From positions 1 to 62,811 of the forward strand of contig JAFGTW010000019.1 of assembly GCA_016938835.1 (NCBI GenBank): a stretch of DNA of 62,811 nucleotides, in the 5' to 3' direction. Made by a program: the position numbers and the translations under genes. The notes under the pieces were generated by a model, which searched no databases, was not told where the DNA came from, and saw nothing but the letters and a program-made list of their open reading frames with translations. This document shows positions 23,650-44,440 of the stretch, piece after piece (position 1 is the stretch's first letter; every line of letters starts with the position of its first letter). This stretch comes from Patescibacteria group bacterium (lineage in GTDB: Bacteria > Patescibacteriota > Patescibacteriia > Patescibacteriales > UBA12465).

Positions 23650-26331
23650 ATGAGTCGAAAATTATTATTTTTTTTAACGCCCCTTGTTGTTATAATAGGA
23701 CTTGGTCTGGCTACTTTTGCTTTGGCCCAAAACATTGATATTGGTACTAATGAAATTAGTAACGCAATTAGTTTAAGTGCAACTGACCCACGCATTATTA
23801 TTGCTAGAATAATTAATATTATTTTATTATTTTTAGGTGTAATTGCAGTTAGTCTGATAATTTATGCGGGTTTTATTTGGACAACAAGCGCTGGTAATGA
23901 TGAAAAAGTAGAAGAGGCTAAAAAAATATTAAAAAATGCAATTATTGGTTTAGTTATTATTTTATCTTCTTGGGGGATTGCGACTTTTGTATTAAATCGC
24001 TTAATAGGATCTACTGGCTCGGCTTCAATTTGGAATGCAAGCTCAAATAATATGCCATCATTAGTGGGAACTGGGGCCATCGGTGCCTGTACTATTGAAA
24101 GAGTATATCCTGAGAATAATCAAAGCAATGTTGCACGCAATACTTCAATTATTATTAGCTTTAAAGAGCCTTTACGTTTAGATAGTGTTTGTCAGGACTC
24201 AAATGCCAATAGCTGTGTTTGTGATGAAGCGAATTGCAAATATATTAATCCTGATGCTATTAGAATTTTTCGGGAAGATTTAGGCGATAGTTGTGATCTT
24301 GATGCCTGTCCGGGAGATAGTACCAATGTTAATCAGGCAATTATTAAGGCTTCTAGTGATCGTCGTACCTTTATTATTTCTCCCGAGAATTTATTAGGAG
24401 TACCAGAAGGTAATACAGATTATCAGGTTAAATTAACTAATGCTTTACTGAAAGATAATAATGACTCAGTTTTTAAAACTTGTAATAGTGACTATTTTCA
24501 GTGGGGCTTTGAGGTTAGCAATAATTTAGACTTAACGCCACCTCAGGTTATACGTGGCGGTATTTTCCCTTTGCCAGATAATGAGAAAGATATTATTGAA
24601 CAGTCAAGCGCAGCAGTCGCGGCTTCAGCCTTAATTCAGGTGAATGATTGTCCTAATATTTATAAAGAAGCTAGTATTATTAGCGTTACTCCAATGGTAG
24701 GAGGGCAATCTGCTTCGGCTGTAGTTGATGATAATTATCATGCCAGTCTTAATTCTTTCACGGTCGTTTCTTTAAGTGATAATAGTCAAGCACAATTATT
24801 TTCTGGACAAAATCTGTTAAGCGTGGGCGACTGGGAGGACAATCAAGTTAGTTTTACTGGATTTATAACTCTTGAAGTTAGCGCTCATGAGGCAGGCAAT
24901 TCTTGGTCAATCGCTGTTAGTCCGGAAATATTAGCAGATCAAATTACAGTGGGCGGTCAAATATATAGTTTTGCTATTAATGATATTGGTAATAATATTT
25001 CAGTTGATACTCTTAATGATACTTGTAGTCTTGAGGCTGTTGCTTCTTCCATTTATTTTAAATTAAGTGGCAATCCTTACATTAATGTTGATATTTCAGG
25101 AAGTAAAGTTATATTAGAGGCTAAAGTCGCCGGGACTGATGGAAATAATATTTTATTGACTAGTAGTAATCCTGTGGCTTTCAGTTTAAAACCTTTTAGC
25201 GGTGGGGTTAATTTAAAAAAAATTAATGAAACCAATGATCGTCAAGATCGTCCAATGAATTCGGTGATTCAGATTAATTTTAATGAAGCGATGAATCCTC
25301 TATTAGTTTCTGGTACGTCTGATGAAGTCAATGCGTATATTCGTGTTATTAATGCTGAAAATGCTGCCTTAGCTGAAGCTTCTTGCGCTCAGGATAGTGA
25401 TTGTCAATCGTATCAATGTGAAAACAGTGTTTGTATCGGTGACTATTTATCCGGCAAGTTTATGGTGTCTAATGCTTATAAAACAGTTGAGTTTATTTCT
25501 AATGAAGAATGTGGACAAAATGCTTGCGGGGAAACAATTTATTGTTTGCCGGCCAACAGTCATCTCGCAGTTGAGCTTGTATCTTCAAATTTAAAAACTT
25601 GTAATAGTGATGAGGATTGTGCTGATTTTACTCCTTTTTCTACTTGTGCTTCCTTTGCTGATTATAAGACATGTCAGGACACGAACAATAAAAATTACCC
25701 AGTTGCCGACGTGGCTAAATTAGATGGTATTATTGATGCTGCTTTAAATTCTATGGATGGTAATCGCGATGTTTTTGCTGATGGACCTTTGGCTTTTTAT
25801 AATGAAAATAACAATGAGGACTTAAATTTAAAAGATAAATATAAATGGTCTTTCTATATTAATGATCAAATCATGCTTGATCCTCCCTATATTACTTATA
25901 TTAATCCAGATAATAATAGCTTAGGGGTTGATATAAATATGCCGATACAGATAAATTTTAATACTTTAATGATGAATGATAGTTTGCGCACAGGTACAGA
26001 GCTTATTGATAATGGACAAACAATTATTGAACATCATTTATTAAATATTTTTAGTAGCATTCCAAGCCCTATTGGTTATTGGGTAACCGTCGAAAATCGT
26101 GATGTTTCTCCTTTGGATGGTGAACCTGATACTACTTATGCTTTTATTAGGCATAATGGTATGTCTCCATCAGCTAGTTACAAGAGTCAGGTTGGTTCTG
26201 GTGTTAAAGATATTTATCAGAATTGTTTTAAGCCTAGTGTTGGGCCTAATTGTATTGCCAACGACAGTAATCCTTCTTGTTGTTATGGATCAAATACAAA
26301 TTTATTAGGCAGTGATGGTAACTGTCAATAA
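23650..26331 (+). CDS. Large surface protein: VirB2/TrbC-like pilin hairpin fused to an Ig-like, Cys-rich ectodomain
   Basis: 893 aa. Signal peptide (..ATFALA|QN), two TM helices around the charged loop TSAGNDEKVEEAKKILKN, then three SbsA/Big_5-like segments (e.g. RNTSIIISFKEPL, NSVIQINFNEAMNP, MPIQINFNTLMMND) and Cys clusters. Confidence 0.85.
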   Translation: MSRKLLFFLTPLVVIIGLGLATFALAQNIDIGTNEISNAISLSATDPRIIIARIINIILLFLGVIAVSLIIYAGFIWTTSAGNDEKVEEAKKILKNAIIGLVIILSSWGIATFVLNRLIGSTGSASIWNASSNNMPSLVGTGAIGACTIERVYPENNQSNVARNTSIIISFKEPLRLDSVCQDSNANSCVCDEANCKYINPDAIRIFREDLGDSCDLDACPGDSTNVNQAIIKASSDRRTFIISPENLLGVPEGNTDYQVKLTNALLKDNNDSVFKTCNSDYFQWGFEVSNNLDLTPPQVIRGGIFPLPDNEKDIIEQSSAAVAASALIQVNDCPNIYKEASIISVTPMVGGQSASAVVDDNYHASLNSFTVVSLSDNSQAQLFSGQNLLSVGDWEDNQVSFTGFITLEVSAHEAGNSWSIAVSPEILADQITVGGQIYSFAINDIGNNISVDTLNDTCSLEAVASSIYFKLSGNPYINVDISGSKVILEAKVAGTDGNNILLTSSNPVAFSLKPFSGGVNLKKINETNDRQDRPMNSVIQINFNEAMNPLLVSGTSDEVNAYIRVINAENAALAEASCAQDSDCQSYQCENSVCIGDYLSGKFMVSNAYKTVEFISNEECGQNACGETIYCLPANSHLAVELVSSNLKTCNSDEDCADFTPFSTCASFADYKTCQDTNNKNYPVADVAKLDGIIDAALNSMDGNRDVFADGPLAFYNENNNEDLNLKDKYKWSFYINDQIMLDPPYITYINPDNNSLGVDINMPIQINFNTLMMNDSLRTGTELIDNGQTIIEHHLLNIFSSIPSPIGYWVTVENRDVSPLDGEPDTTYAFIRHNGMSPSASYKSQVGSGVKDIYQNCFKPSVGPNCIANDSNPSCCYGSNTNLLGSDGNCQ

Positions 26332-26393
26332 ATAATATAATATATAGAAAATTTAAAGTTATTAATTTAATCTAAAAATTTATTTTTAAATCT

Positions 26394-29300
26394 GTGTTGA
26401 AAAATAACAAGAATATTTTTAAATTTTTAGTGTTTACGCTTGTTTTGAGCTCAATAGTTGGTTTTGTTCAATTAGCTTCAGCTCAAATAAACGTTGGCAC
26501 TAATGAGATTGATAATAATATTAGTCTTAGTGCAAATGATCCACGAACAGTCGCTGCTCGTGTTATTAATATTGCTATGCTTTTCCTAGGCATTTTAGCG
26601 GTAGGAGTTATTGTTTGGGGTGGTTTTATTTGGATGACTTCAAATGGCGATGAGGAAAAAGTGGCACAAGCTAAAAAAATTCTTAAAAATGGTGTTATTG
26701 GTTTAGTTATTATTTTATCTTCTTGGGGTATTGCTACTTTCATTTTAAATCGTTTAATTAATTCAACTGGAAATAGTTCTAGCTCTTTTTCTTGTACTGA
26801 TAATCAGTCTTTAGCTTGTGGTTGTGGCGGCTCAATGACTTGTATTGGTGGTTCATGGGGGTCCTGTTTAGGTTCTAATTGTAGCAGCAGCAGTGGTCAA
26901 ACTAGTTGTGACAGCAGTCCTCTAAATGGTTGTCAGGCTAGTGATCAAATTTGTGCTGATAGCAGCTATTGTGATGCTGATACTTGTTCTTGCTTGCCTA
27001 AAGGCGAATTAGGTGATTCTTGTGATTTAAGTCCCGAGACAGCTACTTGTGAGATTAATAATAATTTTTGTTCTGAATATTTAACATGCAGTCCCGATTC
27101 TTGTACCTGTGAAGGCTCTCCGGTTATTACGGCTATTAGTCCGGCGGGAGGTTTTTGTGAAGAAGATATTAATAAAAGTTGTAATGGCGATGAGGAGTGT
27201 ATATTAAGTTGCAATTTAACAGACCCAAATGGGTCCGCGGGCAATATTGTTACTATTAGTGGGAGTAATTTTGGTTCTTATGATCCTTTAGTTAGTAAGG
27301 TTATTTTTGATGGCGACGCTGTGGGCATCATGCCCAGCGAGATTAATCCGGAATGTATTAATTCGTGGACAAATCATCAAATTATTGTAGCTTTGCCAGT
27401 TGATGTTCAAACGGGTCCAGTTACCGTCATTAGTGCTGATAATAAATCAGATGTTAGTAACGATAATTATGGTCCAGAGTTACCTGATTTTATTGTTAAT
27501 AATATTGCCCGACCGGGACTTTGTTTAGTGACTCCAGACGCTGGTCTTTTAAGTCAACAAGTTAATTATCAAGGTATCAATCTTTATGCTGGTGAAGCTT
27601 TCTTTGGCAGTTATAGTAAAAATGTAGCCGGACTTGATTCAGTTTTCACAAATCCGGCTGGCGTTGCTGGCACTAGCATTGTGCCAAATTTAAATGAAGG
27701 GAAAATGAGTAGTTTTGTGATGGCTTCTATTTCAGGTAATCAAGAAAAAAGTAATTATGTCACGTTTGTTAAAGAGCGAGAACCAAATACTGGACCTTAT
27801 ATTAGTTATTTTGAACCAGTAATTGGTCGAGCAGGGCAATATATTACTATTCATGGTGGTGGATTTGGCGGTGCTCAGGGTTACTCCAAGGTATTTTTTG
27901 GTGACGTTGAGGCCGATTATGATTTCCCGGCTGTTTGTGCAAATTCAGTTTGGCGTGATAAGCAAATTATTGTTAAAGTTCCAGCTGATGTGTCTGATGG
28001 CTCTTTTGAAATTAGAATTGAACTTAATGGTGAACAAATAAATTCACAAAATGCTAATCCCAATGTATTTACAGTTGATACTAATGAATCTTTAAAGACA
28101 AGTATTTGTAAAATTTCTCCTTCTCGGGGACAGATTGGCACTATTGTGAGTATTTGGGGTGAATATTTTGGTAAGAATAATGATAATGCTCTTGTTAGTT
28201 TTACTTATAATAAGACAACTAGTGCAATGATTAATAGTGATGACAATGATCAGCTGGCACAGTTACTTGAACCAAGTGTTCCTGATAATGCTACAACTGG
28301 TTCTCTCAAGGTTATTAAAAATAACGAATGGGGCAATGATGTTAATTTTGAAGTAGGTGTTTGCGTTGAAGATAGTGATTGTGGTGATGAAGTTTGTTGC
28401 CCTGTTAATACCTATAAACAGGGAGTTTGTGCGCCAACGCTGGCTTCCTGTTATGTTGATGTACCGACCTCAGTGTTTGAATGGGGGTTTTCTACTGGTT
28501 ATGGCGGTGGTGAAAATAATGTTGTTTATGATAGTTGTCAAGAAATGGCAAAGACATTAGGTGCTTGTCAAATTGGTTCATTTTGTCCTAATTCTCCCGG
28601 TCTATGTTCTCCGTATGCTGGAGGCGCTTTGAATTTAGGTTCATGTGATTCAACTTGTACTAGCGTTAATGCTTGTATAGGACAGACTTCGGGTTGTAGC
28701 TTTAATGGTGATATTGATACCTGCGTTTTAAATAATGCTATTTGCTCTCCAGATACTTCCTTTACTTATAATTTAAATAATTTAGAAATTAATACAAAGA
28801 AGGTTTGTAAATCTTTTTCCCAATTTGGTAATCAAAATCACTTTGAAATAAAAACTTCATCTTCATGTCCTCAAGATTGGACGCGATTAGATGGCGGTCG
28901 TTGTGTTGATAGTATCAGCTCAACTGAGTCTAGCTGTTCTATCTGTGTAACTGGTTTTACATGTTATGCAGAAGAAAATAGTGAGACTGGTGTTTGTATA
29001 AGTCCCGAGCTTTGTAAAGGTGCAGCTGAATGTCAGGGACAAACTTGTGTATCTCAAGAAGATGCTCATTGTGACTGTTGTTGTGAAATTGGAGAAGATG
29101 TTCGTGATTGTTGTGCTCCTTTAACTTGTAGTGGAACTTGTGGCAGTGATACTAGTAATGACGGAGTTGGCTTTGGCCAATGTTCCGGTTGCAGTATTAT
29201 TGATAATGGAATTGTTAATCAAGATTTATCCGATCAGGCTTGTAATTGTAGTACTAGTTCTGGTAAATATTGTGACACCACTATCCCTACTGGTACTTGT

Positions 29301-32249
29301 TTGGATTGCAGCTTACTGTCGGCTGATGCTTGTTTAGATCATAGTCAGGCATGTTGTCTAGATTCTAAGGGCACCAGTGATATTGGCGATGATGTTTGTG
29401 TTGGTGGCAATGGGCAAGCCATTACTAGCGATGAGATTAGTCCTGACTTTGGTTATTGTGCTCGTTATGATTGTAGCGCTAATCTTGACCAAACAAGTGA
29501 TGGCTTTTGTGCTTCAAGCACTCCTTTAAAGTTAGGATTTTTTAAGAGTATAGATAAATGTGAAGATACTTGTGAAGCTGGTGGTAATGATTCTATTTGT
29601 GGTCAGTATAACGGCGACTTAAGTTCTTGTAGTGCTAGTAGTGATTGTTGTTTTAATTTTAGTGATCAAAAATGTGAAGCTGGTGATAAAACCGCTGATG
29701 GTTATTGTACTTATTATGATTGTCAAGCCTCACCAAATGAGGGTAAATGCAATGCTAATCCTGCGGCTACTGGAACTTATAGCACTTATTTAGATTGTAA
29801 TATTGCTTGTTCTCAGCCATCCCTAGGTGGGCTAGGCAAGGATTGTCGTTCTATCGCTAGTTCCGCTACAGACTGTAACCAGTCTTTTTGTAGTTCTCCT
29901 TTTGCTTGTTTGAATGATGCTGGTACTATTGGATTACCAGGCAATTGTGGTACTTGCTGTTGTCAGGTAGATAATCCTTTATCTTGTGCCAATATAGGCA
30001 GTGGCAATTTAATTTGCCAACCAAATACAACTCCTTGCTCTGGAGATGATCGTGGTTTATGTTGTGGTTGTTCTGCGGATGATAATTGTGGCAATGTAAG
30101 TACTCTTGGTTGTGATTCTGGTGCTTGTTGTCGCGCCCGTCCGGCAGTTTTAACTAATCAATTAAATCCCGCCCACGGAGCTAGCAATGTTTGTCGCAAT
30201 GTTACTTTGCAAATCCCCTTCGATCAGTATATGGATATAAAAAGTCTTGAGGAGAATATCTTGTTGTTAGAGGAAATTAGTTATGGAAGTGGTGTTTGTC
30301 CTACGGGTACTTTTGTTGTTTCGGCTGAAGGTTTTCAGTACCAGCGTCAAAATTGGTTAGCGCGCAATATTGCAAAAATGAGTTATAAGTTTAGCAATCT
30401 CTTCCATCATTTAGGTTTATCTTCAGGGGTCGCTCTAGCCGGGATTCCTGATTCATCAAAACTTTATTGTTCTGTTCCTGGGTCGATATCATTAAGTCAA
30501 AGCGGTAATGGCAGTTTAGTTGAGTTCGCTCCTAAAAAGCTGCTTTCTCCTGGGTCTAATTATTATTTAGTCATAAAAGGTGATGAGGCCCTAGATAGTA
30601 ATACGGGCGTTTTAAGTCAATGGCAAATTGGTTTTAATGGCGATGGTTATTTAGATTTATCTTCTGGTACTTATACTGAAGGTGTAAATTTATCCTTTAA
30701 TAACTTAACATTTATTAATTCCTATATTGTAAATTTTACTACTCTATCTCAACAGGGCGCAAATGCAGGTGTATGCGCGGTTGACTATGTATTAGGTAGC
30801 CCAACATCTTATTTGTTTCAGACCACTGTAAATGATCTTAATGAAAATGATGCCGATATTTCTGCTAGTAATTTTGATACGGTCGCTGACAAAGATAAAC
30901 TTTTTACAGCCAATGCTTATAGTGCTGATGGTCAGATGCTTCATCCCACTTCAGCTTATTATTGGGACTGGAATTGGGATATTACTAAGCCAAACTTAGC
31001 AAGCATTTTAAATGTTAGTAGTTTAGCTGTAAATCAAGCTTTTGTTTCAGCTACTGATGGTGTTACTGATGATTCTGGCGTGTTAACTGCTCAAATTAAT
31101 ATGGATCGTTTTTCTGCTCCGGGCTGTAATGACGCCACTAATTGTGTTTGCGCTGAACCTGGCTGTTTTAATAATTGTTGTAATTTATATCAGGATGGTG
31201 ATGGTGCTAAAGCAAATATACCTCTATTTGTATTTATTTGTAAAAATCCTTGGCCGGCGGTTAATCAGAATGATTTAAGTTGGTCTCCTTGGTATGACAC
31301 CTGTGTTGGTGTTAGCAGCTCTGACTGCTCTAATTATAATTATAAGTTTTATTATTGTCGTGATGCCGGTACAGATTTATTAAGTGACGATTTGCCGGCT
31401 ATGATTAATCCAGCGATAATCAAAGGGGGAAGTGGTATTTTTACTTGTAGCGAGGGGCAAACTGCCTGTGAAATTAATGATGTTAATAAAGGTTTGTGCG
31501 GGCCAGATAATAATTTTGATGGAAATCCAGACGGTTTCTGTGTTTGGAGTGTTTTAAAGGAGTCTTATTTCTTTAAGGAAGAGGTGCCAACGGTGGGCGC
31601 TATTACCGCTGCTATTGATTTGGAAACTGGAAGTTCTGTTAGCCTAGAATGGTATGGAGATTCTAGTTTAATTTATAATGTTGATGCAAATAAGCTTGGT
31701 AAATATCGTATTTATTATACTTCAATAACATCTGGTAATACCGCTTTTATTGATGTTAAGCCGAATGATATTTTAGACGATAATATTAACACTGTATGTA
31801 CCCCCCTGCATCCAGTTAGTGGCTCAAATTATTCTTGTCATTATCAAATTGATAATTTAGTTACTGGTGACACTTATAGTTTTAAGGTTTCAGCTATATC
31901 TTTTACTCAAGTTGAAAGTGCTTTATTTGGTGGAAGATCAGTAACTCTGACCGACATGATGGCTCCAGAGAAACCTCTTGGCTTCCTTGCTTCTATTGCC
32001 ACTGATCAGCGTTTAAATTTTACTTGGTTAACCAATAATGATGATACGCGTTTTTATCGTTTGTATCACGGCATTAATTCTGGACAGTATGGAGAGTCTT
32101 TTGACTCGGATGATAATGCTACTTCTTTGGACCTGGATAGCAGACAATTTAGTGCAGGTACCCATTATTTTGCCTTATCAGCCATTGATAATGCGGGTAA
32201 TGAGAGTCTTAAATCAATAGAAGTCTCTATTATTATTCCAGTTCAATAA
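26394..32249 (+). CDS. Giant (1951 aa) cysteine-rich surface protein: pilin-like hairpin + IPT/TIG repeats + Cys-knot-like regions + two FN3 domains
   Basis: Non-ATG start (GTG 26394 or TTG 26397) is needed to include a signal peptide paralogous to ORF 23650. IPT-like GNIVTISGSNFG, GQYITIHGGGFGG, GTIVSIWGEYFG. FN3-like C-terminus (LNFTWL..YRLYHG..YFALSAIDNAGNES). Confidence 0.9.
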   Translation: MLKNNKNIFKFLVFTLVLSSIVGFVQLASAQINVGTNEIDNNISLSANDPRTVAARVINIAMLFLGILAVGVIVWGGFIWMTSNGDEEKVAQAKKILKNGVIGLVIILSSWGIATFILNRLINSTGNSSSSFSCTDNQSLACGCGGSMTCIGGSWGSCLGSNCSSSSGQTSCDSSPLNGCQASDQICADSSYCDADTCSCLPKGELGDSCDLSPETATCEINNNFCSEYLTCSPDSCTCEGSPVITAISPAGGFCEEDINKSCNGDEECILSCNLTDPNGSAGNIVTISGSNFGSYDPLVSKVIFDGDAVGIMPSEINPECINSWTNHQIIVALPVDVQTGPVTVISADNKSDVSNDNYGPELPDFIVNNIARPGLCLVTPDAGLLSQQVNYQGINLYAGEAFFGSYSKNVAGLDSVFTNPAGVAGTSIVPNLNEGKMSSFVMASISGNQEKSNYVTFVKEREPNTGPYISYFEPVIGRAGQYITIHGGGFGGAQGYSKVFFGDVEADYDFPAVCANSVWRDKQIIVKVPADVSDGSFEIRIELNGEQINSQNANPNVFTVDTNESLKTSICKISPSRGQIGTIVSIWGEYFGKNNDNALVSFTYNKTTSAMINSDDNDQLAQLLEPSVPDNATTGSLKVIKNNEWGNDVNFEVGVCVEDSDCGDEVCCPVNTYKQGVCAPTLASCYVDVPTSVFEWGFSTGYGGGENNVVYDSCQEMAKTLGACQIGSFCPNSPGLCSPYAGGALNLGSCDSTCTSVNACIGQTSGCSFNGDIDTCVLNNAICSPDTSFTYNLNNLEINTKKVCKSFSQFGNQNHFEIKTSSSCPQDWTRLDGGRCVDSISSTESSCSICVTGFTCYAEENSETGVCISPELCKGAAECQGQTCVSQEDAHCDCCCEIGEDVRDCCAPLTCSGTCGSDTSNDGVGFGQCSGCSIIDNGIVNQDLSDQACNCSTSSGKYCDTTIPTGTCLDCSLLSADACLDHSQACCLDSKGTSDIGDDVCVGGNGQAITSDEISPDFGYCARYDCSANLDQTSDGFCASSTPLKLGFFKSIDKCEDTCEAGGNDSICGQYNGDLSSCSASSDCCFNFSDQKCEAGDKTADGYCTYYDCQASPNEGKCNANPAATGTYSTYLDCNIACSQPSLGGLGKDCRSIASSATDCNQSFCSSPFACLNDAGTIGLPGNCGTCCCQVDNPLSCANIGSGNLICQPNTTPCSGDDRGLCCGCSADDNCGNVSTLGCDSGACCRARPAVLTNQLNPAHGASNVCRNVTLQIPFDQYMDIKSLEENILLLEEISYGSGVCPTGTFVVSAEGFQYQRQNWLARNIAKMSYKFSNLFHHLGLSSGVALAGIPDSSKLYCSVPGSISLSQSGNGSLVEFAPKKLLSPGSNYYLVIKGDEALDSNTGVLSQWQIGFNGDGYLDLSSGTYTEGVNLSFNNLTFINSYIVNFTTLSQQGANAGVCAVDYVLGSPTSYLFQTTVNDLNENDADISASNFDTVADKDKLFTANAYSADGQMLHPTSAYYWDWNWDITKPNLASILNVSSLAVNQAFVSATDGVTDDSGVLTAQINMDRFSAPGCNDATNCVCAEPGCFNNCCNLYQDGDGAKANIPLFVFICKNPWPAVNQNDLSWSPWYDTCVGVSSSDCSNYNYKFYYCRDAGTDLLSDDLPAMINPAIIKGGSGIFTCSEGQTACEINDVNKGLCGPDNNFDGNPDGFCVWSVLKESYFFKEEVPTVGAITAAIDLETGSSVSLEWYGDSSLIYNVDANKLGKYRIYYTSITSGNTAFIDVKPNDILDDNINTVCTPLHPVSGSNYSCHYQIDNLVTGDTYSFKVSAISFTQVESALFGGRSVTLTDMMAPEKPLGFLASIATDQRLNFTWLTNNDDTRFYRLYHGINSGQYGESFDSDDNATSLDLDSRQFSAGTHYFALSAIDNAGNESLKSIEVSIIIPVQ

Positions 32250-32267
32250 TGTTTTAAATATTAATAT

Positions 32268-35210
32268 ATGAAATTAAAAAAACATTTTATTTTAACTTTA
32301 CTGTTGTTATTGTTTTTTTCTTTTGTTTTTTTTAATCAAGTTAAGGCATTATCTGATTCAAATGAAGCTATTAATGAAAGCGATGCCATTGCTGTTAGAA
32401 TTTTACCTAATCCCAATCATTATAGTGCTGCTCGCTGGTATAAGAGTCAAGGTTTTTCTGGCTCCCCTCAGGCGTTATTAGTCGATTCATATGATGCTGT
32501 GCGTGATGGACGCACTGTTTATGTGAATGCCGCCAATATTAGTGGCAATACTATTTATACTAATATTTATTTGATTTCATATAATCAAGACCCAAATATA
32601 AAAACAGTTGATGTTTTGGGACAAATTGTTGATCACTGGCAGTTTAATAGTAATTTATCAGGAGTTGGTAGTTGTAGTATTTCAACTTTAAGTTGTAATG
32701 ATAATAATGAGTGCGGACAGGGTTTAGAATGCTCAAGTAATAGCAGTGCTTCTGGGCGCTGTCAATTAATAGAAAATGATAATTGCTATACTGATGATGA
32801 TTGTCCTCAGGGTTTATATTGTGATAATTTGAGATCAATGGTGGCTCGTGACGTTCGTCGTTTAGGTGTTTTGGGTAATTTAAGGGAAGCTCTAGCGGTC
32901 TTTAAGCAAATAAATAATAAATATCCAGTCTTAAGTGCTGGTACATATGTACCACTTAATTCTCTTTCAGTTTGGCCAAGTTGGCAGGCTTTATTCTTGC
33001 CTCAAATTGGTGTTTCTCAAAGAGAAATTGATTCAATAAATAGATTGGGTATTTGCGATGGTTTTGATAGTATTACTTGTTGGAATAAAGAGACTCAAAA
33101 TTTTGCTGACCCTCAACCAAATAATAGTACTTTGGAACTGCCAGCTAATAGTTACGTTTTTGCTTACAGTAGTGATAGTAATGGCTCTAATTATAATTTA
33201 TGTGCAGTTATGGAAACTAAAGCTCTTGGCTATAATACTGCTGAAGGGCAATTATCTAATTTAGGCTGTATTGCCAGTGGTTCTGGTTATACGGGTTATA
33301 GTAATAATTTAGCCCCCGTACTAATTGATACAAAGTTGTATGGTGAACAGAACCAAGAGTTTAATGGTTTTATTAAGGTTATCGATCCAGAAAATAATAG
33401 TTTAGATTGGTCAATTAATACTTCAGGAACTTGGGGTAATTGGAGCTCTGCTCCAATTTTGATGGATACTTATAATCCTAATCAGAAAAAAATATATGCA
33501 GTTAGAGCTGGAAATGTTGGTACATATAATCTTATTTTAAATGTAGTGGATTCAGAGGGAGCAATCATGTCCACAAATACTCCGATTGTTATTAGTAATA
33601 ATGAGCCTTTAATTCAATCTGATGATATTGATTATTATCCCAGTACAGTAATTCCTTTAGCTATTAACTTTAGTATTACTGACAAGGATTATCCTTTAAG
33701 TTACACAATTACCAAGTTTGAATACGATTCAGGTCCTTATGATTTGCTATCTTCGTCCAAATCCACTTTTTTGGGTGAAACCTCTCGTCGTAGCGGAGAT
33801 ACAACATATTACACACTAAAATACAGATTAAACACCTCAAATAAGTTTTTATCGGATACAGTTTTTGTTTATTCGATTTCAGCCAAAGATCACTATGGAA
33901 TGGAATCAACCAGAAAAGTGACAATTAATGTGAAAGTTGATCAGCCGATTTTAGATTTTAATTGTGCTAAAACAGTGCGAGTTGGCTCTGCTTATTATTG
34001 TGGTTTAGGTTGGCAAAAACAAGGAGATCACACTATTAATTATACTGTTGTTGGTTCTTTGCCAGATGGACTTAGTATTAGCAATTCTAGCAGTTTAGAT
34101 ATTTCATATAACGTAGAGCCAATCAATACTAAGCCTTGGCAGAAATTTCTTTCGTGGTTAGGAATAGAAAAAAATAATTTTTTATCTAGTGCTGAGGCTG
34201 CCGATGTGGCGTCCTATTATGCTTTACAAGGAACGCCTAACGTTTCTTCTGTAAACAATTTAATTAAGATTAAAGCTGAGAATGAATTTGGGGCTGTTTC
34301 TCAAAGAGAATTTAACCTTTCAATTAATAATTACTGTGGTGACGGTATTAGACAACAACCAAATTTGGAAGGCCGCGGTGGCTTCTATAATGATGGTCAA
34401 GAGAGTTGCGATGGCGATAGTAATATTGTGTTAAATAGGATTCAGATTCCCGCTAGTTCTGCGGATTTTCAATATGCTTGCACTACTAAGCCTGGAGATA
34501 TTGTTCCTTATCCTATTATGAATAATCAGTATTTTTGTACTTTTTCTGACGATCAATTAAACGGTGGTTTTTGTGGTGATGGTGTTTGCCAGTACTCCAT
34601 TGAGCGCAATGGTAACATTATACCTTGGGAAGGGGTTGGTTATTGTAATATTGATTGCGGTGATTGCGGTATAAATGCTTCTTATAACGGTAGCGATTGC
34701 GTTTGTAATTCTGGCTTTTATGATTGTTCGGCAGATATCTTGGGCTGTGAAAGTAGTAGTCAGTGTGGTGATGCCTGCCCTTCTGGGCAATATGAATGTG
34801 ATGGAAAATGTGTGATTGAAAACGATCTTTCTCCGGCTTGCGACTCTATTAGCCAGTGCAGCTCAAGCCTTAAAGGCGATTGTTCATATTGTGAGACAGG
34901 TTATTATAATTGTGATTATTCAGGTGAATGTGAATCATTTGGAGTTTGTACTTGCCCAGCTGGCACTAGTTGGAATAAAGCTGTTTGGCCATACGGCCAA
35001 TGCGTAGTTGATAATATTGGCTGCACCAGTGAAGAAGGTCTTTGTGGTAATCAGTGTTATGATTTAAAGACGGAAAAGTGTTGTGATGCTGATTCTAGTT
35101 CGGTATGTCCAACAAATAAATATTGTTGTTTAGTCGGCGATAATAATGTGTGTTCTTATAACGCGCTTCAGTGTCAAAAACTTAAGGATGCCTTCTCTAC
35201 TATTAAGTAG
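32268..35210 (+). CDS. Large (980 aa) secreted cysteine-rich protein
   Basis: Signal peptide MKLKKHFILTLLLLLFFSFVFFNQVKA. CGDG..ESCDGD and FCGDGVCQ repeats resemble the CxxCGDG cysteine-rich repeat. Dense Cys in the last ~300 aa. Confidence 0.85.
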   Translation: MKLKKHFILTLLLLLFFSFVFFNQVKALSDSNEAINESDAIAVRILPNPNHYSAARWYKSQGFSGSPQALLVDSYDAVRDGRTVYVNAANISGNTIYTNIYLISYNQDPNIKTVDVLGQIVDHWQFNSNLSGVGSCSISTLSCNDNNECGQGLECSSNSSASGRCQLIENDNCYTDDDCPQGLYCDNLRSMVARDVRRLGVLGNLREALAVFKQINNKYPVLSAGTYVPLNSLSVWPSWQALFLPQIGVSQREIDSINRLGICDGFDSITCWNKETQNFADPQPNNSTLELPANSYVFAYSSDSNGSNYNLCAVMETKALGYNTAEGQLSNLGCIASGSGYTGYSNNLAPVLIDTKLYGEQNQEFNGFIKVIDPENNSLDWSINTSGTWGNWSSAPILMDTYNPNQKKIYAVRAGNVGTYNLILNVVDSEGAIMSTNTPIVISNNEPLIQSDDIDYYPSTVIPLAINFSITDKDYPLSYTITKFEYDSGPYDLLSSSKSTFLGETSRRSGDTTYYTLKYRLNTSNKFLSDTVFVYSISAKDHYGMESTRKVTINVKVDQPILDFNCAKTVRVGSAYYCGLGWQKQGDHTINYTVVGSLPDGLSISNSSSLDISYNVEPINTKPWQKFLSWLGIEKNNFLSSAEAADVASYYALQGTPNVSSVNNLIKIKAENEFGAVSQREFNLSINNYCGDGIRQQPNLEGRGGFYNDGQESCDGDSNIVLNRIQIPASSADFQYACTTKPGDIVPYPIMNNQYFCTFSDDQLNGGFCGDGVCQYSIERNGNIIPWEGVGYCNIDCGDCGINASYNGSDCVCNSGFYDCSADILGCESSSQCGDACPSGQYECDGKCVIENDLSPACDSISQCSSSLKGDCSYCETGYYNCDYSGECESFGVCTCPAGTSWNKAVWPYGQCVVDNIGCTSEEGLCGNQCYDLKTEKCCDADSSSVCPTNKYCCLVGDNNVCSYNALQCQKLKDAFSTIK

Positions 35211-35597: not shown

Positions 35598-36341
35598 ATG
35601 TTTGATAATTTAGACAAACAAACTTCCAATGTTTCTGGCGAAAAGGCTGTAGATGATATTTTTGCTGAAACTGAAGGGAGTCAAATAGCTGGTGCTGAAC
35701 TTAAGTCTGGTAATATTGAGGCCCAGTCAGCTGGACTAGCTTCTCATTCTTATGACGAAGAAGCCAATGAACATTCTGAAAAATCAGCTTTTAAATACAA
35801 AAATTTGGTCATAATTTCGTTTTCGTTGCTTATTTTAGTAGCTTTAGCTTATTTGGTTTATGTTAAATTTTTAAGCACGCCTAAGCCAGCTGAACAGTCA
35901 ATGGTTGATAACGCAAAAATAAGTGATAATGAGTTAAATAATGCTATTATTCCAAGCGTTAATCAACAAGAAACTAATATCATGAATGAAAAAAATAATA
36001 ATCAAGGGTCTATTGTTGAGCCAATGGTTGGTGAAAATCGCGTAGTTGAGCCAGTTGATAACGCTAGTATGACCGATACTGTTATAGAGGAAAATCCAGC
36101 AATTCCAGTTGTAACAGCGCCGGTTGATTCTGACGCCGATAGTTTAACTGATATGGAAGAGATTTCTTTAGGTACAAATATTAATTTAATTGACTCCGAT
36201 TTTGATGGCTTATCTGATTATGAGGAGGTAAGAGTATACTATACCAATCCTTTGAATGCTGATACGGATGGAGACGGTTATACGGATGGGAGTGAGATTC
36301 AAAATGGTTATAATCCTAATGGTGAGGGTATTTTACAATAA
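35598..36341 (+). CDS. Single-pass membrane protein with thrombospondin-type-3-like Ca-binding repeats
   Basis: TM (LVIISFSLLILVALAYLVYV), then DSDADSLTDMEE, DSDFDGLSDYEE, DTDGDGYTDGSE, NGYNPNG. Confidence 0.8.
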   Translation: MFDNLDKQTSNVSGEKAVDDIFAETEGSQIAGAELKSGNIEAQSAGLASHSYDEEANEHSEKSAFKYKNLVIISFSLLILVALAYLVYVKFLSTPKPAEQSMVDNAKISDNELNNAIIPSVNQQETNIMNEKNNNQGSIVEPMVGENRVVEPVDNASMTDTVIEENPAIPVVTAPVDSDADSLTDMEEISLGTNINLIDSDFDGLSDYEEVRVYYTNPLNADTDGDGYTDGSEIQNGYNPNGEGILQ

Positions 36342-36350
36342 TAATTATTT

Positions 36351-36542
36351 ATGAATTTAAATTACGGAAAAGATAATCAAAAAAATACTCCTTTGAAGAC
36401 TGGTAGTGTGGGGCTATACTTAAAAGTACATGTGATGCCTAAGTTAAATATGCCTTTGCGTGGAAAACCATGGCATTGGATAATGCCGGTAGTTTTACTG
36501 GCTTTGTCAGTTGTAGCTTTTTTTTATTTTTTTGCTAATTAA
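36351..36542 (+). CDS. Small protein with a C-terminal TM segment
   Basis: 63-aa ORF, 9 nt from both flanking paralogous genes. TM IMPVVLLALSVVAFFYFF. Confidence 0.4.
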   Translation: MNLNYGKDNQKNTPLKTGSVGLYLKVHVMPKLNMPLRGKPWHWIMPVVLLALSVVAFFYFFAN

Positions 36543-36551
36543 TTATTCAAA

Positions 36552-37583
36552 ATGGAACTAAATAAGGAGATTAAAATTAAAAAATCAACAGATAATCTAC
36601 AACAAAGGTTACAGGATGATTTTGTAGTTAAAAATATGCCATCTTTTAGTAGTTTAAGTGCTACTAGCTATGAAGGGGAAGAAGATGTTGATGCAAATAA
36701 AAATAATCACTCACTGTTTAAAAATAAAGCAAGCAAGGTTAATTCTCCTAAATTAATTGGTCTAATTATTATTAGTGTTGGCATTTTAGTTATTTTCGTG
36801 CTTTTTTATTTAGCTTATCGCTTTTTAATAGTACCCTCAATGACACCTTCAATTACACCAGAAATGACTAATAATAATCAAAATAATCTGGTTACAGTTG
36901 TAGCATCGACAGACTCTGTGGTGGAGCCTTTGATTAATAATGATGAAGAGACGGCCTCTTCTACTGTTGATGTTATTGCCGTTGAAGTGGTTTCTGGGGA
37001 AGTTGTGGAAGAAAAAGATAATTTAGTTTTGCCAACAGTTGTAGATAGCGATAGTGATGGATTAAGCGATGCCGCTGAATTATTCTTAGGAACAAATACT
37101 CAGTTAAGCGATACGGATAATGACGGTTATTCGGATTTTGAAGAAATTAATAGTGGGTATAATCCTAATGGGGCTGGTAAATTGGAGGAAAATAATAATT
37201 TAGCCTTATTCTCTAATACCGCTAGTGGTTTTGCGGTTATTTATCCTCATGATTGGGAGATTAATATTGTTTCTCCGGATTCAACTTTATTTTCAGCACC
37301 AAACACTTCTTTTATTCAAATATCAAGAGAAAATAGTGATCAAATTAATTCTGATATTATTAGTTGGTACCAAGAACAGTTTGGTGACATAGATGTACTC
37401 AGTCAGGATCGTTTTATTGATAGTAATTTTGGGCCAGGTATTGTTAGTGCAGATGGTCAAATTATTTATTTTTTAGGACCAGATAACCGTAGTATTTATG
37501 TTATTTCTTATATTAAGTCTGATGATTCAGCTCCTTATATAGAAATATTTAGAATGATGGCTAGCACATTAATGCCTTTATAA
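36552..37583 (+). CDS. Single-pass membrane protein with TSP3-like Ca-binding repeats plus a C-terminal globular domain
   Basis: TM (LIGLIIISVGILVIFVLFYLAY), DSDSDGLSDAAE, DTDNDGYSDFEE, SGYNPNG. Paralogous to ORF 35598 across the repeat region. Confidence 0.8.
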   Translation: MELNKEIKIKKSTDNLQQRLQDDFVVKNMPSFSSLSATSYEGEEDVDANKNNHSLFKNKASKVNSPKLIGLIIISVGILVIFVLFYLAYRFLIVPSMTPSITPEMTNNNQNNLVTVVASTDSVVEPLINNDEETASSTVDVIAVEVVSGEVVEEKDNLVLPTVVDSDSDGLSDAAELFLGTNTQLSDTDNDGYSDFEEINSGYNPNGAGKLEENNNLALFSNTASGFAVIYPHDWEINIVSPDSTLFSAPNTSFIQISRENSDQINSDIISWYQEQFGDIDVLSQDRFIDSNFGPGIVSADGQIIYFLGPDNRSIYVISYIKSDDSAPYIEIFRMMASTLMPL

Positions 37584-41312: not shown

Positions 41313-43628
41313 ATGAAAAAAATTAATTGGACTTCTATATTCTCGCTCATACAAAAAATCGCTTTTTGGTCGTCTTTGCTTATTATACCTTTATCAATGT
41401 CTTTTTTCTTTCCAATTTACAGCCCTTTTACTTTGATAAAATTTTTTTGGCTACAATTGTTGGGGACGATTATTTTATTAGCTAATTTAATTATATTTAA
41501 AAAGAATTTATTAAGCGTTGCTTCTTATCAGCGCTTTATTGCGGGCTTAGCGCCACTAGTTCTTTTTTTATTGGGGTGGTCAATTTTATCGTTGTTTTCA
41601 GTTAACTTGTCTCAAACTTGGTTAGGTTCTTATGACCGAAAAATGGGGCTAGTTTTTTATTATTTTTTGTCTGTTTATTTTGCTTATATTGTTTATTATT
41701 TTTCTAATTTTAATTTTAAGGAAAAAATTAGAAATGTTATGACTTGGTCGAGGGCTACAGCGCGCTTATCATTTTTAATGATGGTGAGTGGTAGCGTGGT
41801 GGCAATTTATGCTTGTTTACAGTTTATTGGTTATGATTTTGCTCAATGGCAAGAAGGACAGTTACTTGGTCGGGCTATTTCAACTCTAGGCCAGCCAAAT
41901 TTCTTAGCTTCTTTGTTACTCTTAACTGTGCCTTTGTCTATATTGGTATTAGTAAAAACAAAAAAAATTCTCTTTTTAAGCTTATCTCTAATAGCTGTTA
42001 TTTTACAGTTTCTCGCTTTATTAATGAGTGGATCAAGGGCTGCTTGGTTAGCGATAGCAGTTGTAGCAGTTTTAGTTCTAATAGTAGAAACTTGGCGTCA
42101 ACGTCATTTTAAAATTTTATGGCTTATACCTCTCTTCCTTATTTTTTTAGTGACGACAGCTTATTTTGTCTCACCAGTACGCCTGCAATCTTTGGTTAAT
42201 TTTAATGCAGGCAGTATTGCTTTGCGCCGCTCTTTTTACCAAGCTGCTGGAAGGGTTATTCCAAATAATATTTGGACTGGGATTGGCTTGGAAAATGGAG
42301 GAGAAGTTATTGTTGGTCAGTATCAGCAGGATTGGGGTATATTTATGAAGGTTGATGCTTATACAGACAAGGTTCATAATAGTGTACTGGATGTTATTAT
42401 TCAGACTGGTATCATCGGTTTAATTTTTTGGTTGTTTTTATATATATTTTGGGCCTGGCAATGTTGGCGTTTATGGTTAAAGCCACAAGGAAGAGCCTTC
42501 GCTTTAGCAGCTGCCAGCGCCATGCTTGCTTACGCCATTTCTTTATTTTTTGGTTTAGCGGATATTGCTGGTGTATTTTATTTTTGGATTTTAGCCGCTT
42601 TCGTGGTGGCAGGTAATTTAAGTCTTAGCGAGGAATCATCGTTAAGGGATTATTTTATTAAATGGAAGAAATTATTACAATTTTTTAAACAGGGAATTAG
42701 GTTATCAATCAGACAAATATTAATGACAATTATAGCGGCCATTTTATTTGGTCTCGCTGCTAGTCAGGCTTATACGGGGCTAAACTCCTTGCAAGCGGAT
42801 TATTATTTTCTGCAAATTTATCGTTTATTGCCGACACAGCGATATTTTCATATTAGTGCTTTAAGTAGCTATATATTGGAGACTGAAAAAAATCCTGTAA
42901 ATTTACATTACTATGAACGTTCTATTGGCCTTTTTGCTTTAAATGACTTTAAAGTTTTGCCAGATTTATCTAGTAAAAAAGTTGCTCAAATTTTAATTAA
43001 TGATATTTATAAACTTTTGCCAGAAGATGTTTATGAAAATAAGTTGGTGAAATCTAATCTAGTTTGTTATTTAGAAGGCGCAGAAAACGCTCGCGCTATC
43101 TTTTCTGATTTATTTTTACTCAGTCCTCGTCGCCCTTTAGTTTATCGTAATTGGGCGGAGTGCTTGCAATCATCTGCTATGCCTGATGAATCTTTACTCT
43201 TTTATGATAAGAGTTTAGATTTATTGCCGAGTATAAACGACCCTCGTTTAAATGAAGAACATAAAGAGTATCTAGCTTATTATTTACACCGAATAAAAAA
43301 TCAGCAGGGTGACTTGTATCAAGAATTACATCAATATGAAGAAGCGATAAGTGCTTACAGTCAGGCTTATACTTATTTTTCTGAGGACATGTCTTCTTTA
43401 AAGAAAAAAGCTGACGTTTACTATTTATTAAAAAATTTAGAATCAAGTAAAGATACATTGCAACAAATATTAAAACGTGAACCTACAAATTTTCATATTA
43501 TTCTTAATCTCGCTGTAGTTTATCAAGAGTTAGGAGATGAAAAAAAAGCGCAAATTTATTGGGAGAAAGCCTCGGCTTTAGTCCCTGGAGAGGCTTTACC
43601 TGCTTTGACTGAATTAATTTATTTTTAA
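41313..43628 (+). CDS. Wzy_C/O-antigen-ligase-like polytopic membrane protein with a C-terminal TPR domain
   Basis: 771 aa. LMSGSRAAWLAIAVVAV is a Wzy_C-type segment. About 12 TM segments, then about 300 aa of TPR-like repeats (YEEAISAYSQAY, LAVVYQELGDEKKAQIYWEKA). Confidence 0.8.
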   Translation: MKKINWTSIFSLIQKIAFWSSLLIIPLSMSFFFPIYSPFTLIKFFWLQLLGTIILLANLIIFKKNLLSVASYQRFIAGLAPLVLFLLGWSILSLFSVNLSQTWLGSYDRKMGLVFYYFLSVYFAYIVYYFSNFNFKEKIRNVMTWSRATARLSFLMMVSGSVVAIYACLQFIGYDFAQWQEGQLLGRAISTLGQPNFLASLLLLTVPLSILVLVKTKKILFLSLSLIAVILQFLALLMSGSRAAWLAIAVVAVLVLIVETWRQRHFKILWLIPLFLIFLVTTAYFVSPVRLQSLVNFNAGSIALRRSFYQAAGRVIPNNIWTGIGLENGGEVIVGQYQQDWGIFMKVDAYTDKVHNSVLDVIIQTGIIGLIFWLFLYIFWAWQCWRLWLKPQGRAFALAAASAMLAYAISLFFGLADIAGVFYFWILAAFVVAGNLSLSEESSLRDYFIKWKKLLQFFKQGIRLSIRQILMTIIAAILFGLAASQAYTGLNSLQADYYFLQIYRLLPTQRYFHISALSSYILETEKNPVNLHYYERSIGLFALNDFKVLPDLSSKKVAQILINDIYKLLPEDVYENKLVKSNLVCYLEGAENARAIFSDLFLLSPRRPLVYRNWAECLQSSAMPDESLLFYDKSLDLLPSINDPRLNEEHKEYLAYYLHRIKNQQGDLYQELHQYEEAISAYSQAYTYFSEDMSSLKKKADVYYLLKNLESSKDTLQQILKREPTNFHIILNLAVVYQELGDEKKAQIYWEKASALVPGEALPALTELIYF

Positions 43629-43633
43629 AAATT

Positions 43634-44440
43634 ATGATGTTTTTATTAACTATTATTATTTTAATGCTCGGCTTATCTTTGGGTAGCTTTGCTAATTGCT
43701 TAATTTGGCGACTATATAAAGAGGAGAGTATTATTGGGCGTTCTTATTGTCCCCTTTGTAAAAATACTTTGCGTTGGTTTCACAATATTCCCTTGCTTAG
43801 TTATATTTTTTTAAAGGGGCGCTGTTATTTTTGTCACAAAAAAATTTCTTGGCAATATCCTTTGGTTGAATTAGTGGTAGCCCTTTTATTTGTTTTATTT
43901 TTTTGGCGTCTTTTAGATTTTAAATATTTAGCTGACGAATCTTTGTGGCTTATTTTACAGAAACCTTCTTTCTATTTGTATTTAATTAGAGACTTGGTGG
44001 TAGTTTGGGTAATGACCATTATCTTTGTTTTTGATTTACGTTATTATTTGATTTCTAATTTTGTGGTTTGGCCAGCGAGTATATTTTTTATTATTATTAA
44101 TTTATTTTTGGGAGTAATTTGGTGGCAAATATTATTAAGTATGGCAGTGGCAGTAGCATTTTTTGGTCTTCAATATTTATTGACGCGTGGTCATGGTTTG
44201 GGTGAAGGTGATATCTGGTTGGGGGCGCTTTTAGGGGCGATATTTCCCGAATGGAGCTTATTAATAACGGCTATTTTGTCGGCTTATTTAGCGGGAACAA
44301 TCGTGGGGTTAACTCTGATTATTAGTGGTCATAAATCCTGGGGCTCAAAATTACCATTAGGTGTATTTTTAGCTATTGGTGCCATACTGGCCTTAATATG
44401 GGGCGAAAACATCGTTCAATATTATTTACATCTTTTTTAG
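43634..44440 (+). CDS. pilD: Type IV prepilin leader peptidase (A24 family)
   Basis: N-terminal CPLC..(x)..CYFC zinc motif with PLLSYIFLKGRC, a GLGEGD aspartyl box, and a polytopic topology. Confidence 0.9.
   Translation: MMFLLTIIILMLGLSLGSFANCLIWRLYKEESIIGRSYCPLCKNTLRWFHNIPLLSYIFLKGRCYFCHKKISWQYPLVELVVALLFVLFFWRLLDFKYLADESLWLILQKPSFYLYLIRDLVVVWVMTIIFVFDLRYYLISNFVVWPASIFFIIINLFLGVIWWQILLSMAVAVAFFGLQYLLTRGHGLGEGDIWLGALLGAIFPEWSLLITAILSAYLAGTIVGLTLIISGHKSWGSKLPLGVFLAIGAILALIWGENIVQYYLHLF

Follow-up and report, generated by a model that had tools for sequence, protein, structure and literature searches.

The protein described here resembles parts of several known systems. VirB2-like pilins of Patescibacteria were described between 2023 and 2025 (PMC10633639; PMC12102498; PMC12857230) and, according to the accessible text of these articles, the Patescibacteria type IV secretion system (T4SS) with such pilins is essential in the one species tested, and a survey detected no PrgB-like adhesin for it (PMC10633639; PMC12102498). 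Known pilins of the VirB2/TrbC type are ~100-150 residues long and lie in arrays, often near virB4 in the accessible part of one account (PMC12102498). A different kind of pilin, the modular type IV pilins such as PilB of Streptococcus sanguinis, consists of a small pilin carrier and a C-terminal graft displayed outside the cell, and the largest graft mentioned in the portion of the source that is accessible counts 860 residues (PMC8179133). Large extracellular cysteine-rich proteins, for which a role in rigidity or attachment was proposed, were reported from Peribacteria in 2016 (PMC4736985). In the present work we describe B1951, a gene of 1951 codons that opens with GTG and occupies positions 26394..32249 of the forward strand in a contig of 62,811 nucleotides (JAFGTW010000019.1, contig C39, ~35% G+C; the whole of it is called the window) from the genome of a Patescibacteria group bacterium (800,563 bp in 55 contigs, rated 98.87% complete). 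Judged by its sequence, B1951 is a VirB2-type pilin with an ectodomain of ~1825 residues grafted on its C-terminus, and we think that it probably forms a disulfide-stapled surface fibre, held in the membrane by the pilin hairpin and acting with its neighbours in surface contact. In the literature searched there was no VirB2-type pilin with a giant cysteine-rich ectodomain, a search that covered the accessible text of the articles cited; supplementary tables outside it (S3 of PMC12102498 and S4 of PMC4736985) may list relatives. The parts of B1951 are as follows.

26394..26396, forward strand: GTG start codon, with TTG 26397 as the sole alternative
26394..26483, forward strand: Sec-type signal peptide, residues 1-30, with a Lys-rich n-region, a hydrophobic core and ASA/Q at its end
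26547..26744, forward strand: T4SS_pilin (VirB2-like) two-helix membrane hairpin, residues 52-117 (Pfam PF18895)
26793..27116, forward strand: three small modules of six cysteines each, residues 134-241, recognised by cysteine positions, the last two a tandem duplication
27123..28358, forward strand: four IPT/TIG-like beta-sandwich modules, residues 244-655 (TIG profile and structure model)
28362..30143, forward strand: cysteine-rich core, residues 657-1250, with 78 cysteines, made of mostly unique modules and one tandem pair
30144..31598, forward strand: Big_5/Ig-like and further beta-sandwich region, residues 1251-1735 (Pfam, alignment and model)
31599..32246, forward strand: two FN3-like modules, residues 1736-1951 (profile and Foldseek matches)

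The preliminary description of this DNA had seen a disulfide-knotted extracellular stalk carrying Ig-fold modules behind an N-terminal signal peptide. Export, the richness in cysteines and the build from Ig-fold modules (TIG, Big_5 and FN3-like) are supported, but the signal peptide is not the whole story of the N-terminus: a complete T4SS_pilin domain at residues 52-117 had been overlooked. The Pfam profile PF18895 matches it with an E-value of 1.8e-13 and 50.7 bits against a cut-off of 26.6, a genome-wide search with the pilin profile marks the same positions (26547-26744), and the NCBIfam pilin-like model NF045849 falls just below its cut-off (37.3 against 40). Hydropathy shows three hydrophobic segments in B1951, namely residues 7-32 (the signal peptide), 51-83 and 96-114 (the pilin helices), and between the two helices sits the charged loop TSNGDEEKVAQAKKILKNG. 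The Pfam matches of B1951 include no family of type IV pilins. Nowhere are B1951 and its homologues better conserved than in the hairpin (0.67-0.72 identity), and residues 5-126 are 52% identical to a complete stand-alone pilin of 127 residues encoded on another contig (C33:15803-16186), which stops where the B1951 ectodomain begins; most other members of the T4SS_pilin family in this genome have 127-160 residues, against the 1951 of B1951. The signal peptide, as had been noted at first, aligns with that of the paralogue A893 encoded directly upstream, and it aligns with the stand-alone pilins as well. A893 and B1951 share the N-terminal module only (63% identity over 123 residues) and then continue into different ectodomains, which indicates that both are pilins with a C-terminal graft.

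B1951 is thus like the VirB2/TrbC-type pilins in its signal peptide, its two hydrophobic helices around a short charged loop and its PF18895 score above the cut-off, and unlike them in its ectodomain of 1825 residues and in its place, on a contig other than that of the VirB4-like gene and among housekeeping genes (compare PMC12102498, as far as its accessible text describes arrays). The likeness to the modular type IV pilins is one of design. According to the accessible text on these, they have a class III signal peptide that is cut by prepilin peptidase (PMC8179133), whereas B1951 has a Sec-type peptide, predicted to be cleaved after A-S-A, followed by a VirB2 hairpin; its graft is also far longer than those mentioned there. 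The positive-inside rule and the analogy to VirB2 pilins would place the loop of the hairpin in the cytoplasm and everything after residue ~120 outside. There is no sortase LPXTG signal, and the C-terminus of B1951 reads ...SIEVSIIIPVQ.

The N-terminal module depends on where translation starts. The frame is closed upstream by a TAA stop codon at 26373-26375, and the only common start codons ahead of the hydrophobic core are GTG 26394 and TTG 26397 (judged partly by eye). The first ATG is codon 62, and this internal methionine already belongs to the first of the two pilin helices; the preliminary description was right in both respects, that the start is not ATG and that the signal peptide is included only if one of these two codons is used. 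Among 33 related loci, 21 (the window included) have a GTG right before the Lys-rich n-region without a usable in-frame ATG upstream of the hydrophobic core, and the remaining 12, which are four closer relatives and the eight most distant loci, have an ATG at the n-region. Since these loci are kin, the 21 represent persistence over deep divergence and not 21 independent events. Under the same rule for open reading frames (ORFs), ATG starts 27 of the 29 complete A893 orthologues and all orthologues of the downstream gene C980. A TTG directly 3' of the GTG is limited to the window and its closest relative, and GTG 26394 is therefore the likelier start, apparently a weak start that the family has kept. 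A weak start on a costly gene close behind another gene would be compatible with tuned or coupled translation. There is no Shine-Dalgarno motif 5' of the GTG, which carries no weight either way because the genome hardly uses such motifs: GGAG, GAGG or AGGA at -20 to -4 precedes 34 of 724 crude ORFs genome-wide, against 8% of random 17-mers. Initiation in the source genome seems not to depend on Shine-Dalgarno pairing. A gene caller that prefers ATG would begin B1951 halfway through the pilin module and so lose the signal peptide altogether.

The ectodomain is a chain of modules. No Pfam family matches residues 125-250 at E <= 1, and the tandem duplication within the first cysteine modules was seen by hhalign (residues 166-202 against 203-241, probability 95.8%). 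The TIG profile reaches 53.5 bits on the whole of B1951 in three stretches (cut-off 20.9) and 69.3 bits on the segment alone. Two AlphaFold2 models were built, each from an alignment of 64 sequences, for residues 120-1250 (mean predicted local distance difference test, pLDDT, 83.4) and 1240-1951 (86.4), and both are beta-rich. In the first of them residues 244-655 have the strand pattern of four beta-sandwich modules (pLDDT mostly 85-96), in agreement with the initial estimate of at least four IPT/TIG-like modules, one with a cysteine-rich insert; that insert belongs to the first module, and its four cysteines (C255, C263, C269 and C273) are kept in 47 of 47 homologues. A profile search of the PDB matches the TIG part with the TIG-like domain of cyclodextrin glucanotransferases (E 2.4e-7). 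The cysteine-rich core is modelled with pLDDT mostly 75-91. Within it hhalign pairs residues 976-1062 with 1063-1145 (99.3%), the other cysteine-rich pieces being unique, and residues 650-1250 have no Pfam match at E <= 0.1 and only a chance-level one, DUF5939 (E 0.14), up to E <= 1; the core also has no sequence match in the PDB and resembles no solved structure in these searches. Big_5 matches residues 1256-1309 with 28.2 bits (cut-off 23.6), and further on there is a conserved Trp/Tyr-rich stretch at 1616-1668 (invariant columns of alignment A2) within a region of cysteine-bearing inserts at 1578-1716.

At the C-terminus, the two FN3-like modules noted from the start find support in the match of the family profile to titin FN3 in the PDB (E 3.4e-12) and by FN3 pairs in a Foldseek search with the C-terminal model (TMt 0.45-0.52), although the Pfam fn3 profile itself stays just under its cut-off on this segment (24.6 bits against 25); PF00041 is precomputed on many B1951 homologues. 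Against all PDB sequences, the family profile matches with its TIG part (positions 450-570) and its FN3 part (1725-1913) only. Foldseek searches of the PDB with both models returned Ig, TIG and FN3 tandems only (plexin ectodomains, receptor phosphatases, titin, the grappling-hook protein GhpA and the Ig-like domains of PrgB), all at low global template-modelling (TM) scores, and no enzyme fold. The preliminary description had spoken of eukaryote-like adhesion domains. This holds in so far as Ig folds, which are widespread, are present in number, but not as a specific kinship. Plexins and other eukaryotic ectodomains likewise chain IPT/TIG and FN3 sandwiches with cysteine-rich segments between them, and Plexin A ectodomains are the top Foldseek matches (E ~1e-13), but the TM score is only 0.08, so that the match reflects tandem Ig folds; the PSI and Sema domains of plexins were not found (PSI was sought in the cysteine-rich segments at E <= 1 and in the whole protein at E <= 0.01), and no eukaryotic cysteine-rich family matched at E <= 1. 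An ESM Atlas search with the whole protein gave no usable match. A reading of B1951 as a toxin or enzyme was rejected, there being no catalytic family or fold in any of the Pfam, PDB-profile or Foldseek searches.

Cysteine makes up 124 of the 1951 residues of B1951 (6.36%), against 0.85% in the crude proteome of 729 ORFs that we called ourselves and on which all proteome statistics here rest; ~17 would be expected, and B1951 alone holds 6.2% of all cysteines of this set (124 of 1993). The hand count of 22 cysteines between residues ~133 and ~275 proved exact for 133-275, and the four cysteine motifs that had been quoted were all found, starting at residues 892, 1186, 1221 and 253. Conservation was assessed in a MAFFT alignment of 48 full-length members with 33-80% identity to the query. 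In it cysteine is the most conserved residue (mean 0.96), followed by tryptophan (0.85); of its 124 positions, 69 never vary and 110 are cysteine in 90% of the sequences or more. The cysteine-rich segments, the conservation of which had been named as a point on which the stalk proposal would turn, are thus the best conserved feature among homologues. Exactly 124 cysteines are present in 24 of the 47 homologues in the alignment, the number is even in 79 of the 97 homologues of at least 1700 residues, and homologues that miss cysteines lose pairs, blocks or whole modules. Within the crude proteome, proteins with at least two cysteines have an even number in 39 of 48 cases if they pass a proxy for export and in 137 of 229 cases if they pass one for a cytoplasmic location (Fisher p 0.005). 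A parity test of this kind was reportedly published by Dutton and colleagues (2008), and the version used here is cruder. The conserved and even-numbered cysteines of B1951 would fit structural disulfides, and the organism as a whole appears to make such bonds outside the cell, with an oxidising and a reducing branch.

Among described proteins, those of Peribacteria are comparable in this respect. In the accessible text (PMC4736985) they have a signal peptide, more than 1000 residues, ~7% cysteine and a large share of the cysteines of the cell, and the Peribacteria genome, like the source genome here, has one disulfide-formation protein. They differ from B1951, which is mostly single-copy, in forming a cluster of 14 genes with variation among strains, and that text mentions no pilin module in them; the comparison is one of descriptions only (PMC4736985).

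B1951 is a real and conserved gene, neither a chimera nor an orphan. A first protein search gave 108 matches, mostly of 1800-2400 residues and with the same Pfam set; where these have a name, it is 'IPT/TIG domain-containing protein' of Patescibacteria, Parcubacteria, Falkowbacteria or Komeilibacteria. There are ~100 full-length collinear homologues on independent contigs, and the length stays near-constant (~1950 residues) down to 43% identity. With the core (residues 650-1250) as query, an exhaustive HMMER search of 1.84 billion cluster representatives returned 152 matches at E <= 1e-3, of which 137 reach E <= 1e-10. Almost every match is a giant protein in which the core has the same relative position, and a search for shorter core-bearing proteins returned six matches, all partial or on short contigs, and no stand-alone form. 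In the order to which the organism belongs, the core is present in 108 of the 151 sampled genomes (91 of 114 high-quality genomes and 59 of 83 genera), always within a giant ORF, of which a matching genome has one or two and mostly a single one; the other 43 of the 151 have no match. Several orthologue records with a Patescibacteria-type gene order (loci L009, L010, L014, L017, L030 and others) are titled 'uncultured Gammaproteobacteria', 'Bacillota' or 'Balneolaceae', and look mislabelled or mis-binned.

An artefact is conceivable, either a chimera made in assembly or several genes mis-called as one, and read-level evidence of a chimera had been named from the outset as a finding that would refute the proposal. 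The B1951 stretch is covered by two DNA runs of one study (X1 and X2), and in both the contigs break inside the pilin module, at the following feature.

26695..26728, with a copy at 23942-23975: exact repeat of 34 nucleotides common to the pilin modules of A893 and B1951

Each run nevertheless has one contig that spans 26699-32400 with zero differences and another that spans 25800-26724, and as the shorter contig begins at the paralogue's copy of the repeat, a single linear path uses all pieces. Whatever the origin of both runs, a chimera is ruled out by the collinear homologues, which lie on ~100 contigs and in 39 genome loci, and we consider an artefact exceedingly improbable. The repeat is long enough to break contigs of a de Bruijn graph and may reflect gene conversion between the two pilin modules. 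No RNA run was listed as containing the B1951 stretch, and the one metatranscriptome of the same study has no contig that matches it.

The genes around B1951 recur with it in other genomes, and the nearest of them are these.

23650..26331, forward strand: A893, paralogue with a signal peptide, T4SS_pilin and a Big_5 ectodomain; 893 residues, 26 cysteines
32268..35210, forward strand: C980, with a signal peptide; 980 residues, 50 cysteines, no Pfam family
35598..37583, forward strand: two bacterial TSP3-repeat proteins, at 35598-36341 and 36552-37583 (Pfam TSP3_bac, E 2.7e-10 and 1.4e-8)

In all 28 loci with complete copies of both genes, A893 lies directly 5' of B1951 on the same strand, with a gap of 3-115 bases in all but two, in which the called ORFs overlap. 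C980, the sequence of which is unrelated to that of B1951, begins no more than a few tens of bases after B1951 in almost every locus that reaches that far. The conserved cassette A893-B1951-C980-TSP3-TSP3 is itself embedded in a recurring order, seen across 39 related loci where contigs suffice: HisRS, RelA (opposite strand), A893, B1951, C980, TSP3, TSP3, ClpP (opposite strand), SecD and SecF. A893, B1951 and C980 look like one operon within a housekeeping region. Further surface-biogenesis genes lie elsewhere in the window, at 10366-11622, 41313-43628 and 43634-44440; they encode two membrane proteins of the Wzy_C (O-antigen ligase-like) kind, of which one has a TPR tail, and an A24 prepilin peptidase.

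A protein with so many cysteines, if exported, would need oxidative folding outside the cytoplasm, and it had been pointed out that no gene for this is visible in the window. Indeed, the window has no DsbA, VKOR or DsbB match. Genome-wide, the proposed search for DsbA, DsbB, VKOR and CcdA homologues succeeded in part, as three genes on other contigs show.

C46:5172-5924: DsbA-like protein of 250 residues with an N-terminal membrane helix and a CPYC motif (Thioredoxin_4 83.7 bits, DSBA 59.4 bits)
C27:5642-6697: fusion of a signal peptide, a GCPHC domain and a DsbD_TM/CcdA domain, adjoining a peroxiredoxin-like gene (named by eye)
C20:156-887: second DsbA-like protein with a membrane anchor, in which CxxC is replaced and two distant cysteines are left

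The first of these, a membrane-anchored thioredoxin-fold protein with CPYC, is what the DsbA-DsbB and VKOR pathways would lead one to expect, and the exported GCPHC domain joined to a DsbD_TM/CcdA-type domain could supply a reducing or isomerising branch. The C20 paralogue may be redox-inactive and chaperone-like. Unlike those pathways, the source genome, 98.87% complete, has no match to the re-oxidases DsbB or VKOR, with profiles that in controls matched 6 and 3 of 14 reference genomes, respectively. It also has no UbiA-type prenyltransferase (a control that matched 14 of 14 reference genomes) and no cytochrome bd. Across 151 genomes of the order, a DsbA-like protein is found in 150, DsbB in 23 and VKOR in 3 above the cut-off or 11 at E <= 1e-3, and none of the five other genomes of the genus has DsbB or VKOR. 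The source organism thus appears to lack the known way of recycling DsbA. As it lacks DsbB, VKOR, UbiA and cytochrome bd, yet places 6% of its cysteines in one protein, another route of DsbA recycling would have to exist. Next to the CcdA-thioredoxin fusion, a gene at C27:4811-5281 encodes a protein of 156 residues with four predicted membrane helices, six cysteines and no Pfam family, which is a candidate redox membrane protein; its other neighbours are a DUF134-like gene (named by eye) and the peroxiredoxin-like gene, and its nearest Atlas clusters are unnamed proteins of ~145 residues from DPANN archaea and Patescibacteria.

Taken as a disulfide-stapled fibre, B1951 would be exported by Sec and lose its signal peptide, after which the pilin hairpin, two helices with a short Lys-rich loop in the cytoplasm, would hold it in the cytoplasmic membrane with the C-terminus pointing outward. 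The ectodomain of ~1825 residues, from the three six-cysteine modules through the four TIG modules, the core of ~600 residues and the Ig-like sandwiches to the two FN3 modules, could be stiffened and stabilised by up to 62 disulfides formed from the 124 cysteines, making a long fibre on a wall-bearing, single-membrane cell. The membrane-anchored DsbA-like CPYC protein would introduce these bonds, and the CcdA-thioredoxin fusion would be available to correct wrong pairs. Together with the pilin-anchored A893, the cysteine-rich C980 and the two TSP3-repeat proteins, which are putatively calcium-binding, B1951 would be part of a surface module of one Patescibacteria order that most likely mediates contact with a partner cell or surface.

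Several points weigh against this proposal. B1951 has no known ligand-binding fold, its role in contact is predicted from architecture and context, and the oxidative pathway, in which neither re-oxidase was found, is incomplete by present knowledge. The pairing of the cysteines is a prediction, 18 of the 97 homologues of at least 1700 residues have an odd number of them, and the parity test depends on crude ORF calls and on hydropathy as a proxy. The kinship of the related loci makes the count of start codons overstate independence, and runs X1 and X2, both of which may be the source sample, would then not be independent support. Finally, conservation is even along B1951 (0.3-0.7 per block of 25 residues) and its length is nearly fixed. 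This is unusual for adhesins that track variable host surfaces, and it fits a structural role as well, in which B1951 would be a rigid spacer or scaffold of the envelope, comparable to an S-layer stalk or a ruler, rather than a ligand-binding adhesin. The mostly single copy per genome and the fixed synteny among housekeeping genes agree with such a role, as does the fact that Pfam, PDB-profile and Foldseek searches of B1951 gave no lectin, vWA or other recognisable binding domain. However, the Pfam scan also gave neither an SLH domain nor another that binds the wall, nor any sign of a self-assembly motif, chains of Ig, TIG and FN3 domains are typical of adhesins, and the fully conserved patch at 1616-1668, rich in Trp, Tyr and Asp, looks like a binding or interface site. 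A scaffold would moreover be missing from the 43 genomes of the order that have no match. On balance we find a purely structural role quite unlikely.

The pilin module allows another possibility, which concerns the way in which the protein is displayed. The T4SS_pilin profile has 13 matches in the source genome, 12 of them above the cut-off, and these include a tandem array of six small cysteine-free pilin genes (127-145 residues) at C33:15803-18399, with one more at C33:13153-13608. The first member of the array is the closest relative of the B1951 N-terminus. The array resembles those reported for other Patescibacteria. A gene for PrgI (VirB3-like) and one for a VirB4-like ATPase (P-loop_TraG, E 3.2e-29) are on contig C46, and the ATPase (C46:33417-35318) is found in 143 of the 151 genomes of the order with 74-94% identity over full-length matches; being far more conserved than B1951, it is marked as a core machine of these cells. 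CagE_TrbE_VirB and TrbL profiles have no match in the source genome. It is conceivable that the VirB4/PrgI machine extracts the B1951 module from the membrane and places it within, or at the tip of, a conjugation-type pilus composed of the small stand-alone pilins, so that the ectodomain would be displayed as the pilus adhesin. This remains attractive because the module is a complete and highly conserved pilin and because the literature, in its accessible text, has essential pilin arrays and no PrgB-like adhesin (PMC12102498; PMC12857230; PMC10633639); the modular type IV pilins, as described in the accessible text on them, use the same trick (PMC8179133). However, B1951 lies on C39 and the T4SS genes lie on C46, and no T4SS component turned up in a scan of the window that covered, besides the three large genes, 20 of the 51 ORFs listed. 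A graft of 1825 residues cannot sit on every subunit of a helical filament, which restricts B1951 to the tip or to a sparse position at most, and 43 of the 151 genomes have no match to the core though nearly all have the ATPase. Incorporation into a pilus is thus a serious but doubtful prospect, and we prefer a static anchor in the membrane, because the gene is unlinked to the T4SS genes and the graft is huge. Near the DsbA-like gene on C46 (18-3245 and 10824-18854) there are further pilin fusions and cysteine-rich proteins, namely a T4SS_pilin with an NlpC/P60-like tail (432 residues, 19 cysteines, both Pfam matches under the cut-off), a T4SS_pilin of 351 residues with a tail of 22 cysteines, and a secreted protein of 2676 residues with 102 cysteines and a CBM_4_9 domain.

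In its boldest form, which we regard as rather unlikely, the proposal would be that this family is the missing adhesin of the Patescibacteria T4SS pilus, a VirB2 'modular pilin' bearing a fibre with 62 disulfides and folded by a DsbA that is recycled without DsbB, VKOR or quinones. If this were true, most of the order would share a new route by which disulfides form outside the cytoplasm. A large part of bacterial diversity belongs to the Patescibacteria, which live attached to other cells and whose attachment and feeding are poorly understood. B1951 provides a concrete candidate for a link between the T4SS machinery of these organisms and cell contact, and it shows that the grafting of modules on pilins, known from type IV pili, exists on a conjugation-type pilin scaffold too. 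It also sharpens the redox puzzle of these cells, in that a genome of 0.8 Mb puts 6% of its cysteines into one protein that may contain up to 62 conserved disulfides.

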